Position numbers and translations under genes: made by a program. This document shows, in pieces, positions 3,777 to 42,264 of a stretch of DNA of 64,000 bases (positions are counted from its first letter, which is position 1; each line of letters starts with the position of its first letter). Under the pieces are notes generated by a model that did not search any database, was not told the origin of the DNA, and worked only from the letters and a program-made list of their open reading frames with translations. This DNA comes from a phage, in NCBI GenBank assembly GCA_038450185.1, contig GCA_038450185.1_4765.1; one strand, written 5' to 3'.

Positions 3777-4082
3777 TCATTTAGACAAATAATCATTCTG
3801 TGCAATCCGGTCAGCATGTTCCGGCGTTACGTCAATTGCAATCACTTTAACGCGCGCTTTCTTGACTGAATTTTCTCGTAGCCAGTGCGTGTGACCGTGC
3901 ACATTTTTATACTTTGATGCTTTTTCGAAAGTACGGATCGGACCTGGGTAATCAGCGTAAAGGATCTCTAGGTCTTCTGTGATGTAAAAATATACATCAT
4001 AATTACTGTTCTCTAGTTTAAGCAGAGACTTTCGGAACATTGGGAGATTTTCGCGGGTAAATTCAAAGATATTATCTTTCAT
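3777..4082 (-). CDS. hypothetical protein, HxHxHW family paralogue
   Basis: ORF track 3777..4229 trimmed to ATG 4082 with GAGGA SD; motifs YITEDLEILY, HGHTHW, VIAIDV. Confidence 0.5.
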   Translation of the reverse strand: MKDNIFEFTRENLPMFRKSLLKLENSNYDVYFYITEDLEILYADYPGPIRTFEKASKYKNVHGHTHWLRENSVKKARVKVIAIDVTPEHADRIAQNDYLSK

Positions 4083-4131
4083 AGTATTATCCTCAATAGT
4101 TGGATGAAAAGGGGGCTTAACGCCCCGTATA

Positions 4132-4419
4132 TTAAAACAGTCCTTCCTGTACACCGTAGTAGAGTTCATCGCTGATAATTTCATTAATGCGACGGTGTGC
4201 ATATTCCTGATTTGCGAAGTTGTCAGCAAGTTCTACTTTAGTTTCGCCGTCATGAGTCCATTTAGTGATAACTTTACCATCTGCAAATTTGAAGTTGAAC
4301 TCTTTAGCTACTGCATCGCGTACCAGACGTGCAAACTTATTGTTGCGGATTGCATTGTCGGTTTCGTGTGCAGCGTGAGCGAATTTGTTAACTTTCAGGG
4401 TGATAGTAATGTATGCCAT
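4132..4419 (-). CDS. hypothetical early protein
   Basis: ORF track; ATG at 4419; promoter cassette upstream. Confidence 0.5.
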   Translation of the reverse strand: MAYITITLKVNKFAHAAHETDNAIRNNKFARLVRDAVAKEFNFKFADGKVITKWTHDGETKVELADNFANQEYAHRRINEIISDELYYGVQEGLF

Positions 4420-4465
4420 AATTTGATTCTCCTAGTTAGAAAGTGTATCTCGTTTCGATGGGTGT

Positions 4466-4494
4466 ATTATGCTATACACCCAACCTCATGTCAA
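4466..4494 (-). promoter_or_regulatory. early promoter cassette (TTGACA-17-CATAAT)
   Basis: Hexamers at correct spacing upstream of gene starting 4419. Confidence 0.5.
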
Positions 4495-4500
4495 CACTTT

Positions 4501-4779
4501 TTATAAAATAATTTTTTGATATTTTTCTATGATGTTCGTGTAATTCACATCAACCGCTAGCACCGTTGCTTCGAATCCACCGTTTAGCCAATGGCTATGA
4601 TCGTGATCGTGAAAGAAACCTAGACCAGTACGAAGACCTTCTTTATATTCGGCGCGTACATTTAGATCATCATCGATAAACAGATAAAACCATGAATTTT
4701 TACTAGGATTGATGATACAACCTTTCAGATTCGGGAGAATATCACGACTAAGAATAAACTTATCACCTACTTTGAACAT
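4501..4779 (-). CDS. hypothetical protein, HxHxHW family paralogue
   Basis: ORF track 4501..4869 trimmed to ATG 4779 with GTGAGGA SD; motifs FIDDDLNV, HDHDHSHW, VLAVDV. Confidence 0.5.
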   Translation of the reverse strand: MFKVGDKFILSRDILPNLKGCIINPSKNSWFYLFIDDDLNVRAEYKEGLRTGLGFFHDHDHSHWLNGGFEATVLAVDVNYTNIIEKYQKIIL

Positions 4780-4793
4780 AATATTTTCCTCAC

Positions 4794-5102
4794 TTATAAA
4801 GTTTGACCGTTGTTTTTCGCGTAATGCTGAATGCGTGCTTGATCTGCTTCCGATGGTGATAGATTCCATGCAACCACTACAACTTCTGAAGCATCGTCAT
4901 CCGTTTCTGATACCCAATGATTGTGATTCATACAGTTATTTGCTATCGAGTGAGCAAATGATTTCATCACTGGAGACGTATAATCATAGTAACGGATTTT
5001 CAGATTTTCATCAACATACAAGTAGATCGTATACGGCTTATATTCAGTAACCAATAACAGACAGTTACGCAATTCTGGGAAAATCTTTTTAGTTAATTTC
5101 AT
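4794..5102 (-). CDS. hypothetical protein, HxHxHW family paralogue
   Basis: ORF track; motifs YVDENLKIRYYD, NHNHW, VVVAW. Confidence 0.5.
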   Translation of the reverse strand: MKLTKKIFPELRNCLLLVTEYKPYTIYLYVDENLKIRYYDYTSPVMKSFAHSIANNCMNHNHWVSETDDDASEVVVVAWNLSPSEADQARIQHYAKNNGQTL

Positions 5103-5304
5103 ATTCTAGTTCTCCGTAATACACGGTAATCCATTTTTCTTCATACTTTGTATCTTTCCAGCACACAATCCCGTTTACTGTGCAATCTTTGGAATTGACG
5201 AATGATTCATATTGTTCTGCATCTTCCATCATTTCATGAGCGGTCTTTTCATCGAATATATCGCAGATCGCTTTATATGCTCGATAATCTTTAAATTTGC
5301 TCAT
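5089..5304 (-). CDS. hypothetical small protein (tandem paralogue of 5307..5516)
   Basis: ORF track 5089..5316 trimmed to ATG 5304; shares MSKFKDY..AY N-terminus with neighbour. Confidence 0.4.
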   Translation of the reverse strand: MSKFKDYRAYKAICDIFDEKTAHEMMEDAEQYESFVNSKDCTVNGIVCWKDTKYEEKWITVYYGELEYEIN

Positions 5305-5306
5305 AA

Positions 5307-5516
5307 TTAACACCACTCAAGAGTTTTTGAAAACACATCTATCCATTGTTGAGTATATGCGGTTTCTTTCCATGACACAATACCAGTCGAATAATGGTTT
5401 TTGTTTCCAGAAAAGGACGGGCATTTTGATGCATCTTCCATCATCTTTTCGGCGAACTCTGGTGCGTATACTCGCAGGATCTGTTGATATGCTTTATAGT
5501 CTTTAAATTTGCTCAT
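5307..5516 (-). CDS. hypothetical small protein (tandem paralogue of 5089..5304)
   Basis: ORF track; ATG at 5516. Confidence 0.45.
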   Translation of the reverse strand: MSKFKDYKAYQQILRVYAPEFAEKMMEDASKCPSFSGNKNHYSTGIVSWKETAYTQQWIDVFSKTLEWC

Positions 5517-5781
5517 AATCGTTAACTACCTTATCAGCTTCTTTTATTGTTTTTACATCAACTGCGATAATCCGTAAAGGTTCGTCGAAGGTCCACCAAT
5601 GATCGTGAATATCAGCTTGTGATTTATCACCAAAGGAATCACGAATATCATTTTTACATTTATAGCTAATGTGACCGTCATAGTCAACATAAAGGTAATT
5701 ATCGAAAATCGGCGTTTTTAAGATCATACCGAAAAATCTTTCTTTGTGTGTCTTATCCAGTGTTGCAGTAATTCGCATCAT
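5503..5781 (-). CDS. hypothetical protein, HxHxHW family paralogue
   Basis: ORF track; ATG 5781 with AGAGGA SD; motifs YVDYDGHISY, HDHWW, IIAVDV. Confidence 0.5.
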   Translation of the reverse strand: MMRITATLDKTHKERFFGMILKTPIFDNYLYVDYDGHISYKCKNDIRDSFGDKSQADIHDHWWTFDEPLRIIAVDVKTIKEADKVVNDYEQI

Positions 5782-5793
5782 AATATATTCCTC

Positions 5794-5973
5794 TTAGAAA
5801 GGGATGGTCATTTCTTGAGCTTGTACATTCTCGTTAGGATTAAACTTCATCCAACCGATATTGTCTACCAGCATATGTACATTTTTATCATATCCTACGT
5901 GAGTAGTCAACACTAAATGTGCTTTACCTTCAACGATGATTTCCATGTACTTCTGAACTTCGATAGCTTTCAT
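5794..5973 (-). CDS. hypothetical 59-aa protein (below ORF-track size cutoff)
   Basis: Hand translation: ATG at 5973 after GGAGAATCAAA RBS, MKAIEVQKYMEIIVEG..., stop at 5794-5796; promoter cassette upstream. Confidence 0.4.
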   Translation of the reverse strand: MKAIEVQKYMEIIVEGKAHLVLTTHVGYDKNVHMLVDNIGWMKFNPNENVQAQEMTIPF

Positions 5974-6005
5974 TTTGATTCTCCGTTTGTTGTCTTGATG
6001 GGAGT

Positions 6006-6034
6006 ATATTACTACTCCCTTTAATCATTGTCAA
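6006..6034 (-). promoter_or_regulatory. early promoter cassette (TTGACA-17-TAATAT) with palindrome across -10
   Basis: GGGAGTATATTACTACTCCC palindrome overlaps the -10 box. Confidence 0.45.
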
Positions 6035-6037
6035 CTA

Positions 6038-6205
6038 TTATTTGTTAATTTCCGGTGCGTTGCTCGGATAGTAACCTTCTTTAACACCCAGATATTTCGC
6101 AACCATTCCGGTGATCTTCTGTGCTACTACGATATCGAATTTCAGGTAGTCTTCACCGTGGTTTGCTACAATGTATGCTTCGCATTCTGCTTTAGTCTGG
6201 AACAT
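6038..6205 (-). CDS. hypothetical small protein (paralogue of 2295..2462)
   Basis: ORF track 6038..6241 trimmed to ATG 6205 (MFQTKAECEAY). Confidence 0.5.
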   Translation of the reverse strand: MFQTKAECEAYIVANHGEDYLKFDIVVAQKITGMVAKYLGVKEGYYPSNAPEINK

Positions 6206-6239
6206 TTTTGATTCTCCTATATCTCGTTGGTATGTGTGC

Positions 6240-6268
6240 ATTATAGGGGATCACCGATCCCCTGTCAA
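6240..6268 (-). promoter_or_regulatory. early promoter cassette (TTGACA-17-TATAAT), palindromic spacer
   Basis: About 45 bp identical to the cassette at 111-155. Confidence 0.6.
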
Positions 6269-6276
6269 CAACTTTT

Positions 6277-6579
6277 TTATTCTTCGTCTTTATCTTTATA
6301 TGCGTATTTCATAAATTTGTCTGCTACTTCATCGGCATGTTCCGATTCTACGTCGGATTCGAGAACAATAGCAAGATCGGTTTCGTCGTTTCCGTCATAC
6401 CAATGATTATGAGTATCGTTTTCTTCGATATAGAATGAGTCATTTGGAGTTGGACGACAATATACATCTAAATTCTCATCGATGTAAAAGATCCAATCTT
6501 CGTAAAGAATAACCGTATTAGCCAGATTTTTATTGCCTTCAACGAAAGGTTCAGCTACAAATAGCTTAGTTTGTTCCAT
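6277..6579 (-). CDS. hypothetical protein, HxHxHW family paralogue
   Basis: ORF track 6277..6636 trimmed to ATG 6579 with GAGGAAAA SD; motifs YIDENLDVY, THNHW, LAIVLESDV. Confidence 0.5.
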   Translation of the reverse strand: MEQTKLFVAEPFVEGNKNLANTVILYEDWIFYIDENLDVYCRPTPNDSFYIEENDTHNHWYDGNDETDLAIVLESDVESEHADEVADKFMKYAYKDKDEE

Positions 6580-6595
6580 AATATTTTCCTCAAAA

Positions 6596-6787
6596 TTATA
6601 CAGCTTCGTAAACTTCCCAATGTTCAGCGCCAGCACGCTTAACGAAAAGGTTTTCTTTGATGTTATTCATAAACGTCTGGATGGATTTAATGCGGTTGGA
6701 AGGTTTCCAGTCTTCGTTAGCATTTCGGCGATACATTATAACATTACCAGATCGCTTATATTCAGCAACCATTTTAAGACCACACAT
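6596..6787 (-). CDS. hypothetical small protein
   Basis: ORF track; ATG at 6787 with GAGGA SD. Confidence 0.45.
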   Translation of the reverse strand: MCGLKMVAEYKRSGNVIMYRRNANEDWKPSNRIKSIQTFMNNIKENLFVKRAGAEHWEVYEAV

Positions 6788-6843
6788 AATATTATCCTCA
6801 ATTTGTGGGAGAGTATTACCCTCCAGATTATTGTTATACTACA

Positions 6844-7146
6844 TTACGCAAAATGGCGTGTCAATGCTTCTTTTGCTGTTCCGCTAAGATTCTCGATCTC
6901 TCCTGGCATAACATCAACCGCCAGAACTTCTACAACATCCTCTGATCCTAACCAGTGAGTATGACCTTTGTAGAACTTGATATCCCATTTATCGCTATCG
7001 CTAGCCCACCACACATCACCGTCGATAAAGTTGATGTAAAGCACACTACGACACATTGAATTAATTACTTTCAATACTGCGCCTTTCATATCTTCCACGG
7101 TATGGTCTTCCATTTTGAAGACCTCACCTACCTGAACTTTTGCCAT
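6844..7146 (-). CDS. hypothetical protein, HxHxHW family paralogue
   Basis: ORF track; motifs FIDGDVWW, KGHTHW, VLAVDV. Confidence 0.5.
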   Translation of the reverse strand: MAKVQVGEVFKMEDHTVEDMKGAVLKVINSMCRSVLYINFIDGDVWWASDSDKWDIKFYKGHTHWLGSEDVVEVLAVDVMPGEIENLSGTAKEALTRHFA

Positions 7147-7163: not shown

Positions 7164-7343
7164 TTACATAACAATCACGCCAGCCGTTGAAAGTTGATGT
7201 TTCAACTGAGCATTTTCTGCTACTGTCAAATCAATGATTTCTTGTGACGCTGCAATCATATAGCCATTGGTGATATTGTTTTTCATCAGTTCAATGGTTT
7301 CTTCGTTGTAGCGGATTTTAGCGATGATTTCGTTGAAGTTCAT
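7164..7343 (-). CDS. hypothetical small protein
   Basis: ORF track 7164..7445 trimmed to ATG 7343 (MNFNEIIAKI) with GGAGAATCAA RBS; promoter cassette upstream. Confidence 0.45.
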   Translation of the reverse strand: MNFNEIIAKIRYNEETIELMKNNITNGYMIAASQEIIDLTVAENAQLKHQLSTAGVIVM

Positions 7344-7377
7344 AATTGATTCTCCTAGTTCGTTTCGGTATGTGTGT

Positions 7378-7406
7378 AGTATAGGGGATCGGTGATCCCC
7401 TGTCAA
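7378..7406 (-). promoter_or_regulatory. early promoter cassette (TTGACA-17-TATACT), palindromic spacer
   Basis: Spacer GGGGATCACCGATCCCC on minus strand. Confidence 0.55.
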
Positions 7407-7419
7407 CAACTTTTTTGAA

Positions 7420-7896
7420 TTATTTTTCTTTATGCTCGCGCTCATACTTTTCGAAATAAAATTCTACTGGCTGGTCGTGGATTGACAGTAAGCCAAAGCG
7501 TTTAGCCGCTCGCAATCCCATATTGCGCTGAATGTACTTCTGGAAGTTCTCGCGTATACACTTACGCCAGTATTCTAAGCCCATACAGCTTTTATAAAGA
7601 TTGCATTGCACACATGCCGGATTCATGTTATCAAGTATATCATGCTCCGGTTTATGCATTCCTACAACCTTATACTTCCACGATCCATCATCATTACGGG
7701 CAATTCGTCCATTTTCATCATAGACTACCTTTGAGCGTCGCAATACTGGTTTGATGTGGTCTGCGTGCCAGCGATCCCCTAGTTCCTCGCCACAATAGGC
7801 ACAACGTCCACCATATTTCATTTTCAGGATCTGGCGTTGCTCTTTCTTTGACAATTTTTTAGGTTTAGGGGCTTTCGCCCCTTCATTATCACACAT
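7420..7896 (-). CDS. HNH endonuclease domain protein
   Basis: ORF track; CAYCGEEL...HADHIKP...CVQCNLYKS zinc-binding HNH signature; overlaps ligase gene by a few nt. Confidence 0.55.
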   Translation of the reverse strand: MCDNEGAKAPKPKKLSKKEQRQILKMKYGGRCAYCGEELGDRWHADHIKPVLRRSKVVYDENGRIARNDDGSWKYKVVGMHKPEHDILDNMNPACVQCNLYKSCMGLEYWRKCIRENFQKYIQRNMGLRAAKRFGLLSIHDQPVEFYFEKYEREHKEK

Positions 7897-9382
7897 CGAA
7901 TACCTCTTTTACTGTATTTGCAGTGGTCTTGTCGTAGCGAATACGTTTGATGATCGGGAGAAATAAAGAGAACTCCGGTTCATCTTCTTTACGTGATTTG
8001 CTGCGGATATACCCGTTGCATGTCATCTCAATGACTTTTCCAATCAGGTTATGACGGTCAGCCCATAACATTTCTCGGTCAAGTTCATTTCTACGATCGA
8101 ACGGAATCACACGTTCAATACCATCATCTTTTTCGGTTGTAGTGTCGGTCAATCCCGATCCGGTGTTGGTCATCATTCGTCCGCACGCACTACGGACAGT
8201 AAAACCGCCTACCTTATTAGGATCTTTACTATGCGGATATACATCAACAATTTCCGCGTCGAAGTCAATCACTTCTTTAAATTTAACCTGATCTTTACTG
8301 CGACGATCTTCAAATACACCATGCAGATTTTTAAGGATAATACCTTCTAATCCCATGTTTACATATCGATGATATACTTCGCGAGCTTCATCGATATTGT
8401 TAACTACAGTATTTTCGATTATCTGCACACGAGGATCGTTAAGTTCTTCAACAATCTGTTTTAGTTCTTCGAATCGATCTTTATATTGCTTCGTTGCTTT
8501 CTCGTTTCCGTAATACACATCACGGTTGATAACATCCCAGACAGTGTAAACAATACATTGGGCTTCTTCTTTTGGAATAGTTCCTTTCAGTGATTTGTTG
8601 AGGATACCATTTCCGGTCTGACGATCTGCAACAACGGATTCTTTTACTGCTTCCGCTACTGGCGTTAATGGCATTTCCTCTTCTTCAAATATCCATGACA
8701 GAGTACCATCATAAACGCTTTCAACGAAGTTCTGCGCTGGTGTTTGCGAAAGGGTAGGCATATATACCAATTCGCCATCTAGAACAATTCCACGGCCTCG
8801 TAGACGCTCTAAAACAGCAAACAAATCATCCAGCCCCTGATAGGTATTACCTGAACGGGTATATATTGCTAGTGTTTCCCCGTCAATATCAGCCATACCA
8901 CGAGCGCCATCACTTTTAAGTTGTGCATATGCCGGATATTTGATATTAGCAATAGCCTTATCAGAATATGACGATGCAAGGTGGCATGGTTGCTGTGGGA
9001 TCAGTTTCTTCCATACCTTGTTTGCAGTGGTAGCGGAACAACCGCATTCCAGATCACGATTCAGGACCATCATTGCAACTTTAGCATCATCTTCTGACAA
9101 GCAAGTCAGAGTATCGGTAACTAGTTGTAATGCAGCATTACCAGTTACTTGACGCGTGGCAAGTTTATTTTTAAAGACCTGTAATGCACCGGATAAAGAC
9201 AATACAGACGAATAACGCGATGGTTTATCGTATTTCTTTACGCCAAACGTAACCTGTTTGCAATATGCCAGATAAAAGCATTCTTTCAGCGTTTCATTGC
9301 TTGCAGATTCTTTCAGGATCTTTTCTTTCAGCGATGTTTTGTCTGTCGCTGCAAGCTGATTAATGATATTAAGAATTGACAT
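7889..9382 (-). CDS. 30: ATP-dependent DNA ligase (T4 gp30-like)
   Basis: ORF track 7889..9388, ATG at 9382 with GAGGTG SD; strong similarity to my recollection of T4 ligase (DLECG, AYAQLKSDGAR, GNGILNKSLKG, GLEGIILKN). Confidence 0.9.
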   Translation of the reverse strand: MSILNIINQLAATDKTSLKEKILKESASNETLKECFYLAYCKQVTFGVKKYDKPSRYSSVLSLSGALQVFKNKLATRQVTGNAALQLVTDTLTCLSEDDAKVAMMVLNRDLECGCSATTANKVWKKLIPQQPCHLASSYSDKAIANIKYPAYAQLKSDGARGMADIDGETLAIYTRSGNTYQGLDDLFAVLERLRGRGIVLDGELVYMPTLSQTPAQNFVESVYDGTLSWIFEEEEMPLTPVAEAVKESVVADRQTGNGILNKSLKGTIPKEEAQCIVYTVWDVINRDVYYGNEKATKQYKDRFEELKQIVEELNDPRVQIIENTVVNNIDEAREVYHRYVNMGLEGIILKNLHGVFEDRRSKDQVKFKEVIDFDAEIVDVYPHSKDPNKVGGFTVRSACGRMMTNTGSGLTDTTTEKDDGIERVIPFDRRNELDREMLWADRHNLIGKVIEMTCNGYIRSKSRKEDEPEFSLFLPIIKRIRYDKTTANTVKEVFDV

Positions 9383-9848
9383 TTTCACCTCGTTTTGTTA
9401 AACGTTCACGAATATCATTGAGGATACTACAAAATTCCGATTCGGTCAATATGGTCTTTAACGGATCAGTTCCACCTATACTATGACGTAATTTCTTATT
9501 TCCTGTAGCAAGTAATGCTTTACAAAATTCTGGGTTATTCCGTGCCATCGTAACAAATGCCAGATGTACCAGTCTGTAATAATGCTCACTCATTCGATGA
9601 ATCTGGCGACCCTGAAAATATAACATGTGATTCTCAATCTTTTCAGTTCTTCCGGTTCTTTTTGCTTTGCCACCGTGCATCAAAAAGATTTCTCTTTGTC
9701 TCTGAGGGTTCTTAAATCTTAGCCCCTGTAAAAATCCTTCTGTGCTGTTAATATCGCAACCAAATAGACGGAATGGTCTTTTATTGAAATTACTCAATTC
9801 ACCCGATGGATAAGGTCCACCCGCATAGATATCAATTTCAGAAGTCAT
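9369..9848 (-). CDS. putative NADAR / YbiA-like (DUF1768) protein
   Basis: ORF track; by-eye resemblance to YbiA-type pattern (ELSNFNKRPF, SEHYY, ALLATGNKKL, ILNDIRERL); not verified by search. Confidence 0.35.
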   Translation of the reverse strand: MTSEIDIYAGGPYPSGELSNFNKRPFRLFGCDINSTEGFLQGLRFKNPQRQREIFLMHGGKAKRTGRTEKIENHMLYFQGRQIHRMSEHYYRLVHLAFVTMARNNPEFCKALLATGNKKLRHSIGGTDPLKTILTESEFCSILNDIRERLTKRGENVNS

Positions 9849-22997: not shown

Positions 22998-23025
22998 ATT
23001 ATACACTATTGCGTTACGCTGTCAA
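22998..23025 (-). promoter_or_regulatory. early promoter (TTGACA-16-TATAAT)
   Basis: Hexamers upstream of gene starting 22966. Confidence 0.5.
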
Positions 23026-24030
23026 CTCTTTTTCAAAAGTTTTTACGATATACATGATAGTGCTCAATTCAGACGGCGCGACTGTTTCTGTGTAGCCATC
23101 CGGCATATCTTCTTTTGAGATATAGGAAGTTTTACCTTTCATCGCTTCCTTGATCTTGTTCTCTAATTCTAAGATCTTTTGACCGTCTTGTAAAGTCAAT
23201 TCATAAAAGATCTCGTGGTCGAATTTAGATTTCGCTGATTGGTTTCTCATTCGTTCTTGTGTTGTTAAATTGGTTATTCCAAATTTGATTCCATAAAAAC
23301 ATGATTTTTTAATTAGTTTTTGAATGTATAGTGTTCCGTGTTTTAAAGTGTTGTATCCAAATCTAGCACAACTTGAACATCTATTTCCTGATAGAAACCC
23401 GTTAATTGTTGGTGTAAATGTATGACCATTACAACATTGCAATTTTAATTTTGTTGTATTTCCTTTCCATTCACCTATAAATCCATTGAATAGTATGTTT
23501 TCTTTATCAAAGATTGGTTTAATTCTAATAATATAGTCATCTTTGGGTATTGATTTTAATTCTTTCAGTTTTAACCGGTAGCATTCTTGGCAGCGTCTTC
23601 CATTTTTGAAATTGTTAATTGTTGGTGTAAATGTATGTCCATTACAACATTGTAGATTTAATTTTGTCGATGACCTTTTCCATTCACCTATAAATCCATT
23701 GAATAGTATGTTTTCTTTATCAAAGATTGGAGTTAACTTATGTAGATGTTCATCTTCCGAAAAAGATTTCATCCTTCCATTCTTTATGTCTGCACATTTA
23801 TGACAGCGATTTCCAGCGTTGAAATTGTTAATTGTTATTGTAAATGTATGACCATTACAACATTGCAATTTTAATTTTGTTGTATTTCCTTTCCATTCAC
23901 CTATAAATCCAATAAACTTTATATTTTCTTTAAAGAATGTTGGTTTTAATTCTTCGTAGTAATTCACTGGAGATTTTGAATTGTGAGCTTTTCTAACCCA
24001 TTCAATCTCATGTGCTTGACGTACTAACAT
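23014..24030 (-). CDS. triple zinc-finger repeat protein with C-terminal T5orf172 / GIY-YIG-like domain
   Basis: ORF track 23014..24075 trimmed to ATG 24030 with GGAGG SD; three ~70-aa repeats each carrying QCCNGHTFT...C..C; C-terminal FYGIKFGITNLTTQERMRNQ. Confidence 0.5.
   Translation of the reverse strand: MLVRQAHEIEWVRKAHNSKSPVNYYEELKPTFFKENIKFIGFIGEWKGNTTKLKLQCCNGHTFTITINNFNAGNRCHKCADIKNGRMKSFSEDEHLHKLTPIFDKENILFNGFIGEWKRSSTKLNLQCCNGHTFTPTINNFKNGRRCQECYRLKLKELKSIPKDDYIIRIKPIFDKENILFNGFIGEWKGNTTKLKLQCCNGHTFTPTINGFLSGNRCSSCARFGYNTLKHGTLYIQKLIKKSCFYGIKFGITNLTTQERMRNQSAKSKFDHEIFYELTLQDGQKILELENKIKEAMKGKTSYISKEDMPDGYTETVAPSELSTIMYIVKTFEKELTA
23370..23935 (-). repeat. three in-frame tandem repeats of ~210 bp inside CDS 23014..24030
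   Basis: Near-identical nucleotide blocks visible three times in this span, encoding the zinc-finger units. Confidence 0.6.
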
Positions 24031-24060
24031 AATTTTATCCTCCGTTGTTTCTATGGGTGC

Positions 24061-24089
24061 ATTATACATTACCACATCAGCATGTCAAT
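24061..24089 (-). promoter_or_regulatory. early promoter (TTGACA-17-TATAAT)
   Basis: Hexamers upstream of gene starting 24030. Confidence 0.5.
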
Positions 24090-25170: not shown

Positions 25171-25199
25171 ACTATATCAGATACTTAATTGCTTGTCAA
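25171..25199 (-). promoter_or_regulatory. possible promoter for gene 32 (TTGACA-17-TATAGT)
   Basis: Hexamers about 45 nt upstream of gene 32 start; overlaps 3' end of HNH gene. Confidence 0.35.
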
Positions 25200-25781
25200 T
25201 ACTTTATCAATTATATCTAACAGTTTTGGCTTTCTATTTTCAAATTCTAACATCTCTTCGGGAGAAATGTCAACTACTTCTGTTTTGTTGAAAAAGTTTG
25301 GGTCTATAGCATCAGCAACAAAGTTTCTCGCAAGTGCTGCCGCTTTCTCATGAACATATATTCCCAAATATATCAACTTCTTTCTTTCGACCTGAATATT
25401 GGCAACATATTTACCATCTCGTTTATAAAGACTAACACCGATATATTCAGACGATCGACCTTTCTGTTTACCCATATTTCTTGAGTTTTGTTGCTCGTTC
25501 GCATCTCTCAAGTTTTCAATCCGATTATCTGTTATAATTCGGTTAACATGGTCAACGTATTTTGGCATGTATCCATGATGCATAAAGAAAATTATTCTAT
25601 GCTCTTTATGATGTTTACCATCGATACACACCAATCTGTATCCATGACTAGGATTAACTCCACCAGCTCTAGATCCGACTTTATGCTTTCGGTTTGTCGA
25701 TATCTTGCAAATCAGCTTACCGTTATCATATTTAAAGAGTTCATGACAACGAGCATACAATTCAGGATCATATGTTTTCAC
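25185..25781 (-). CDS. HNH homing-endonuclease-like protein with AP2-type DNA-binding domain
   Basis: ORF track; HNH core HGYRLVCIDGKHHKEHRII...VDHVNRIITDNRIENLR and AP2-like SEYIGVSLYKRDGKYVA; apparent GTG start with GAGGT SD; inserted between 32 and 59. Confidence 0.55.
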   Translation of the reverse strand: MKTYDPELYARCHELFKYDNGKLICKISTNRKHKVGSRAGGVNPSHGYRLVCIDGKHHKEHRIIFFMHHGYMPKYVDHVNRIITDNRIENLRDANEQQNSRNMGKQKGRSSEYIGVSLYKRDGKYVANIQVERKKLIYLGIYVHEKAAALARNFVADAIDPNFFNKTEVVDISPEEMLEFENRKPKLLDIIDKVLTSN

Positions 25782-42235: not shown

Positions 42236-42264
42236 ATTATAGGGGATCGCAGATCCCCTGTCAA
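42236..42264 (-). promoter_or_regulatory. early promoter cassette (TTGACA-17-TATAAT), palindromic spacer
   Basis: Spacer GGGGATCTGCGATCCCC. Confidence 0.55.

Follow-up and report, generated by a model that had tools for sequence, protein, structure and literature searches.

The locus raises the question whether a small HNH endonuclease gene, which lies behind the DNA ligase gene of a T4-type phage, is a free-standing homing endonuclease gene that still moves or a domesticated nuclease gene. The window, i.e., the whole stretch of 64,000 nucleotides that was analysed, was assigned to Krischvirus (RB49/Phi1-like T4-type coliphages). The 4 kb around the HNH gene are 95-99% identical to 59 complete Krischvirus genomes, among them RB49, Phi1, JSE, GEC-3S and ECD7, and the best match of this stretch is vB_EcoM_Skers (98.8%).

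According to the RefSeq annotation and the literature on RB49 and Phi1, the gene itself is already known. It is ORF212 of both phages, labeled “HNH endonuclease” in RefSeq (NP_891783.1, YP_001469556.1). Nolan et al. (2006) filed RB49ORF212c under putative mobile DNA elements, with the label “HNH endonuclease” (Pfam, 9.2e-7; PMC1524935), and Table 5 of Petrov et al. (2010), a count of putative homing endonuclease genes, enters one “other HNH” for RB49 and Phi1 (PMC2993671). The ORF212 proteins are 98-99% identical to that of the window on amino acid level, the genes agree in their position and in their overlap with gene 30, and there is no structural difference between them. The literature calls ORF212 putatively mobile, whereas the population data presented here argue for a fixed and vertically inherited gene. 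Hence, the discovery value of the gene is small and the new point is modest: the ligase-linked HNH gene is fixed and constrained, not mobile. For the published tables, this means a correction, as an ORF counted as a putative homing endonuclease gene behaves as fixed, strongly constrained and co-diverged with the ligase. No functional study was found in literature searches on Krischvirus and HNH. The gene is a clean candidate for studying the role of a domesticated or retained homing-type nuclease. In the history which we regard as probable, the HNH gene closes the early gp30.3-ligase unit as its last cistron, stems from a single ancestral insertion and was subsequently fixed as a functional nuclease gene with a fitness benefit.

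The gene and its junction with gene 30

The HNH gene is located on the minus strand at 7420..7896, starts with ATG and encodes a stand-alone Zn-finger HNH protein of 158 AA. Its upstream cistron is gene 30 for the ATP-dependent DNA ligase (7889..9388, minus strand), which starts either with GTG at 9388 or with ATG at 9382 and matches Pfam DNA_ligase_A_M (3e-22) and phrog_114 (9e-143). Gene 30 is preceded by gp30.3 (Pfam Phage_30_3, 6.5e-38), and the neighborhood of the HNH gene thus consists of gp30.3, the ligase and ORFans. The first-pass annotation had placed the ORF directly downstream of the ligase gene with a slight overlap. This is correct, and it can be added that all of these genes are on the minus strand. 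The overlap of 8 nt (ATGTGTGA, 7889..7896, minus strand) comprises the start codon of the HNH gene (7896-7894) and the stop codon of the ligase gene (7891-7889). The last codons of the ligase gene contain a Shine-Dalgarno sequence (AAGAGG, 7903..7908, minus strand) 6 nt ahead of the ATG, and at the equivalent place a ribosome_binding_site is annotated in Makalu_002. The overlap is annotated identically in Phi1, RB49, JSE, SSG23, Makalu_002, Cognac and Skers. Since the HNH start overlaps the ligase stop and the ribosome binding site lies inside the ligase CDS, the HNH gene should be co-transcribed with the ligase gene and is probably translationally coupled to it. Both genes would be expressed together early.

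A hairpin GGGGC-GAAA-GCCCC (7868..7881, minus strand) starts 8 nt after the ligase stop codon, inside HNH codons 6-10. When the RNA of 7840-7935 (minus strand) was folded, the hairpin was present in both the MFE and the centroid structure (z = -3.0). It sits within an insertion of 8 AA (DNEGAKAP), which the sister lineage described below does not have. The hairpin may be a remnant terminator or attenuator after the ligase gene, or a brake on HNH translation.

Motif, fold and family of the protein

The ORF had attracted attention by its zinc-binding HNH signature, and the complete Zn-finger HNH motif was indeed found. The protein scores 27 bits against the Pfam superfamily profile HNH (PF01844, cutoff 21.4) and matches phrog_2118 (“HNH endonuclease”) with 1e-54. 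The latter match covers the full length of the profile including its C-terminal motif. The catalytic and zinc core is encoded at 7600..7803 (minus strand), with C32 at 7803-7801, C35 at 7794-7792, D46-H47 at 7761-7756, N90 at 7629-7627, C95 at 7614-7612 and C98-N99 at 7605-7600. Thereby, the protein contains both the D-H...N...N/H catalytic residues and the CxxC...CxxC zinc site. In an alignment of 53 homologous sequences, C32xxC35, D46-H47, N90, C95xxC98-N99 and K102 are invariant. The same alignment contains a C-terminal motif (AKRFGL...FYFEK), in which R129, A131, G135 and L136 are nearly invariant and F146, F148 and E149 invariant. The AlphaFold model (pLDDT 92.3, pTM 0.80) has the beta-beta-alpha fold and matches Cas9-type HNH domains. 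By analogy to D839/H840/N863 of the Cas9 HNH domain, H47 would act as general base and D46/N99 as metal ligands, while the four cysteines would bind Zn. Thus, the gene probably encodes a small stand-alone, Zn-stabilised HNH (beta-beta-alpha-metal) DNA nuclease, for which metal-dependent nicking or cleavage of double-stranded DNA is predicted.

The nearest known domains and small nickases are the Cas9-type and McrA-type Zn-finger HNH domains, Gme HNH (4H9D) and GVE2 HNH (5H0O). The protein of the window differs from these in that it is stand-alone, carries a family-specific C-terminal helical extension (R129-A131-G135-L136...F146-x-F148-E149) and has no guide-RNA, reader or terminase partner. 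A solved structure related by sequence was not found, and the fold search of BFVD with the HNH model returned uncharacterised HNH proteins only. PADLOC and NCBIfam, searched for defence proteins and type IV restriction relatives, gave only sub-threshold HNH-motif matches to PtuB, Cas9 and retron HNH. Domain and fold searches detected no recognisable extra DNA-recognition domain.

Members of phrog_2118 and the plasmid-borne proteins named “HNH endonuclease signature motif containing protein” match over the full length, including the C-terminal motif, with 38-50% identity. The Krischvirus protein differs from them by a Lys-rich N-terminal extension and by its longer beta-hairpin insert, and it is the only member of this family seen coupled to a DNA ligase gene. 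At E ≤ 1e-30, the exhaustive profile search yielded 158 cluster representatives, and at E ≤ 1e-10 it yielded 1,548; nearly all of these are stand-alone proteins of 120-200 AA. The nearest phage homologs outside Krischvirus are at most 50% identical and occupy differing positions: between DNA polymerase and helicase in eiAU, in the nin region of HK225, upstream of the terminase in Bas79, and in early or recombination regions of Sasha, Bcep176 and c341. In the Morganella phage vB_Mm5, another member of the Straboviridae, the homolog does not adjoin the ligase gene. Any family member is present in at most 158 of the 1,424 phage records with a gp30-type ligase, and 59 of these are Krischviruses. 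This small HNH family is also common on the conjugative plasmids of enterobacteria. It was found in 2,684 PLSDB plasmid records (2,435 conjugative), mostly of Klebsiella, Escherichia and Salmonella. Plasmid copies were located at 1980-2402 of L044 (CP142585.1) and at 4878-5411 of L045 (NZ_KY019258.1); one lies between trbC and traN in an IncF tra operon and one in an IncHI2 accessory region. Literature searches retrieved no functional study of the HNH gene between trbC and traN.

Given the sporadic occurrence of the family in other phages and its high frequency in conjugative plasmids, a mobile, homing-type ancestry of the HNH gene is plausible. The GC3 of the HNH gene (43% compared to 34% for the ligase gene) hints at a foreign origin, but gives no indication of the function.

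Two further genes of vB_Mm5 (L002) were inspected. The gene just upstream of the HNH homolog (7327-7980) encodes 217 AA with a C-terminal Gly_radical motif (Pfam, 1e-17). A split nrdD was considered and dropped, since this neighbor has the Gly_radical C-terminus but is not nrdD-like. The ORF of 171 AA downstream of the homolog (8488-9003) lacks a terminase domain; its annotation as “terminase large subunit” is probably wrong.

Distribution, divergence and selection

The HNH gene was found in full length, as a single copy and at the same ligase junction in all 59 complete Krischvirus genomes, although fixation within one genus (~96-98% nucleotide identity) is also expected of a homing gene after a sweep. 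The copies are 96.4-99.6% identical on nucleotide level, like the genomic background. The Krischvirus-type ligase gene is full length in exactly 59 records. A 60th ligase match, a partial RB49 record of 1.5 kb, was left out because it ends before the HNH site. An empty site, i.e., the ligase gene without the HNH gene, was not found among the 59 complete genomes.

Selection was determined for nine genomes. The pN/pS values are 0.032 for the HNH gene, 0.042 for the ligase gene and 0.025 for gp30.3, with pS of about 0.12-0.14. The HNH gene has 41 variable nucleotide columns and only six variable amino acid columns, four of which fall within the first nine or the last four residues. No pseudogene copy was seen in this comparison. 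A decayed relic was rejected, since the gene has kept all of its catalytic residues and its pN/pS is 0.03. Nucleotide diversity is 0.030 for the HNH gene and 0.026-0.035 for its flanks, without sign of a recent sweep. The distance matrices of the HNH gene and of ligase segments correlate poorly (r from -0.19 to 0.40), but correlations are equally low among the ligase segments themselves; due to mosaic recombination, this measure is uninformative.

A sister lineage was detected in the Logan metagenome contigs L021 and L022, in which ligase and HNH genes occur in the same order with a TAATG overlap. This lineage is represented by two short contigs only (1.3 and 1.0 kb), whose HNH sequences are identical. 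Compared to the window, the C-terminus of the ligase is 70% identical and the HNH protein likewise 70%, with pN of 0.195 and 0.207, respectively. Since a sister lineage diverged by about 30% keeps the ligase-HNH pair, the pair has co-diverged since before the radiation of the genus. Scans of metagenomes and IMG/VR for further diverged ligase-HNH lineages found none, but only Krischvirus-like contigs and unrelated family members. One metagenome contig (L025, MAVA01000210.1, 1029 bp) contains a Krischvirus ligase-HNH junction with a frameshifted HNH gene. Its differences are three single-base deletions, two of which lie in short same-base runs; the 3' end of this low-quality contig is unalignable and possibly chimeric. 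A natural pseudogene was therefore rejected, and the single-base deletions together with the unalignable 3' end were judged to be sequencing or assembly errors.

The window contains an internal control. Gene 32 (ssb) and gene 59 (helicase loader) flank a free-standing AP2-HNH homing endonuclease gene (25185-25781, minus strand, 198 AA; Pfam HNH_3 and AP2). Only 12 of the 59 Krischvirus records carry this gene at full length, and nine of these 12 copies are at least 99% identical, above the genome background. The gene looks genuinely mobile, and its distribution is what active spread of a homing gene would produce. A paper of 2024 also notes that HNH homing genes vary among Krischviruses (PMC11611945). 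The ligase-linked gene shares with the T4-type free-standing HNH homing endonucleases (mobA-E of T4, AP2-HNH of RB49 and RB43) the HNH core and the organization as a stand-alone ORF behind a conserved gene, and like them it probably arrived by horizontal transfer. It differs from them by the absence of presence/absence polymorphism, by the absence of an AP2 or NUMOD DNA-binding module and by its smaller size (158 AA).

Upstream of gene 32, another highly variable locus was observed (23014-24075, minus strand). It contains an ORF of 353 AA with three CapR-homology/treble-clef zinc-ribbon repeats (“QCCNGHTF...”), whose counterpart in Skers is annotated as GIY-YIG family nuclease. The ORF is full length in only four phage records, and partial or diverged copies occur in about 30 others.

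The first-pass annotation had left a choice between a homing endonuclease and a domesticated nuclease, and it had named universal presence in a conserved, non-mobile context as the outcome of a comparison across related phages that would speak against homing. Exactly this outcome was obtained. Like an active free-standing homing gene, the HNH gene is a stand-alone ORF behind a conserved gene, in this case gene 30, but neither sporadic presence with empty sites nor a signature of recent spread was found. A currently mobile homing endonuclease is at odds with the presence at one site in 59 of 59 genomes, with the junction in the sister lineage and with a pN/pS as low as that of the ligase gene. 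The domesticated or fixed nuclease is supported by universal presence, the kept junction and strong purifying selection. Accordingly, the HNH gene is best read as an anciently fixed gene for a functional nuclease, co-expressed with the ligase. As a fixed single-copy gene under purifying selection of ligase strength, it most likely benefits the fitness of the phage and no longer moves. Marker exclusion directed at HNH-less phages, instead of a “housekeeping” role, could also explain the purifying selection.

Competing histories and the variable region downstream

A promoter scan found, with 11 of 12 matches, an early promoter of the PeSL type whose spacer contains a stem-loop (TTGACA-GGGGATCACCGATCCCC-TATACT, 7378..7406, minus strand). 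It begins 14 nt past the HNH stop codon (7406-7378) and marks the start of a hyperplastic ORFan region. The window contains four near-identical cassettes of the form TTGACA-GGGGATCNNNGATCCCC-TATAMT, located by motif match at 120-148, 6240-6268, 7378-7406 and 42236-42264 (all minus strand), whereas none would be expected by chance. PeSLs are promoter-early-stem-loop elements, known as recombination cassettes of the hyperplastic regions of RB49 and Phi1 (PMC2839356). In about 20 related genomes (e.g., RB49, JSE and Cognac), continuous alignment stops at about 7346-7359, just downstream of the promoter. The first variable ORFan cassette downstream (7164..7343, minus strand, 59 AA, phrog_14803) is replaced in relatives, and the gene next after the HNH gene is ORF211 in RB49, JSE and Cognac, ORF210 in Phi1 and this ORFan in the window. 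From the alignment break and the turnover of the next gene it follows that the conserved ligase block ends with the HNH gene, which borders on the variable region.

In the history we favor, a homing-type mobile gene would have been inserted once behind gene 30, before Krischvirus and the ~30% diverged sister lineage separated, and would have become translationally coupled to the ligase gene after its capture. As the presumed last cistron of the early gp30.3-ligase transcription unit, it would since have been inherited vertically, as a fixed single copy under purifying selection as strong as that on the ligase gene. The benefit may lie in the exclusion of HNH-less competitors, in an attack on host DNA or in phage DNA transactions. 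As a best guess, the substrate would be the DNA of co-infecting relatives or of the host, and nicks in the phage DNA would be resealed by the co-expressed ligase.

The T4 seg and mob genes are examples of intronless homing, and T4 segG, mobE and similar genes are positioned behind conserved essential genes, which the place directly behind gene 30 resembles. The HNH gene could, hence, still be a selfish free-standing homing gene, which cuts the gene 30 region of HNH-less relatives, is copied in by repair and reached 100% of the sampled genus by chance. Such a history would agree with a family that is scattered over unrelated phages in varied positions and also enters plasmid tra operons, and with the roughly 1,265 or more of the 1,424 phage records with a gp30-type ligase that hold no family member. 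We nevertheless consider it unlikely, since no empty site exists in 59 genomes, diversity equals that of the flanks without a sweep (the AP2-HNH control, in 12 of 59 records and mostly at ≥ 99% identity, behaves otherwise), the gene has co-diverged with the ligase gene to 70% identity in the sister lineage, and no recognisable extra DNA-recognition domain was found. Fixed homing genes are also expected to decay, but pN/pS is 0.03 and there are no pseudogenes. The literature, which counts ORF212 as a putative homing endonuclease gene (PMC1524935, PMC2993671), is on the side of the selfish gene.

Three further functions were weighed against the favored history of an ancient insertion that became fixed. 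The fixed HNH protein might be no retired selfish element but a co-opted nickase working together with the co-translated ligase on phage DNA, for instance as helper nuclease on the GGGG...CCCC stem-loops of PeSLs, where it would start modular shuffling or the formation of mini-circles; we give this very little weight. Acting on the phage's own DNA at this locus, it would either nick PeSL stem-loops, with the modular shuffling and mini-circles of RB49 and Phi1 as a consequence, or form a nick-and-seal pair with the ligase. The first PeSL of the hyperplastic region follows 14 nt after the end of the HNH gene, conservation breaks just past this PeSL in many relatives, and Arbiol et al. speculated about a specific protein targeting GGGG...CCCC stem-loops (PMC2839356). 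The start codon and ribosome binding site probably couple the gene translationally to the ligase gene, and the related small HNH enzymes Gme and GVE2 are nickases according to their database descriptions. However, this helper role is derived from position alone, PeSL-like motifs are reported from Aeh1, RB43, JS98 and 44RR (PMC2839356), where no family member was seen, and family members of other phages and plasmids have neither PeSLs nor a ligase gene nearby, which makes it very doubtful. A packaging-associated HNH protein of the HK97 gp74 type, which assists terminase cleavage, is extremely improbable. The probability of an hhalign match between the family and HK97 gp74 is 0.7%, the gene lies on the early strand beside the ligase gene without a terminase or portal neighbor, and most family members are found in replication or early regions. 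Furthermore, the T4-type terminase gp17 already carries its own nuclease. This candidate was rejected based on the hhalign result and the gene context. An endonuclease VII-like junction resolvase or a replacement of gp49 was suggested by weak matches to PHROGs named “endonuclease VII” (phrog_1035, 1e-9; phrog_2914, 6e-7) and by the similar size (158 AA compared to 157 AA). We attach practically no credence to it and rejected it, since Phi1 has its own gene 49 and profile and fold similarity are weak: hhalign against the Phi1 gene 49 product gave a probability of 31% over 34 residues only, and orthology was not found.

The hyperplastic region downstream of the HNH gene contains six paralogous ORFans of 92-102 AA within 3777-7146 (minus strand), namely at 3777-4082, 4501-4779, 4794-5102, 5503-5781, 6277-6579 and 6844-7146. 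A Pfam search of one of them gave no match. The six proteins are 25-31% identical and share an invariant H-x-H-W motif as well as “YLYIDEDL”-like and “AVDV”-like blocks.
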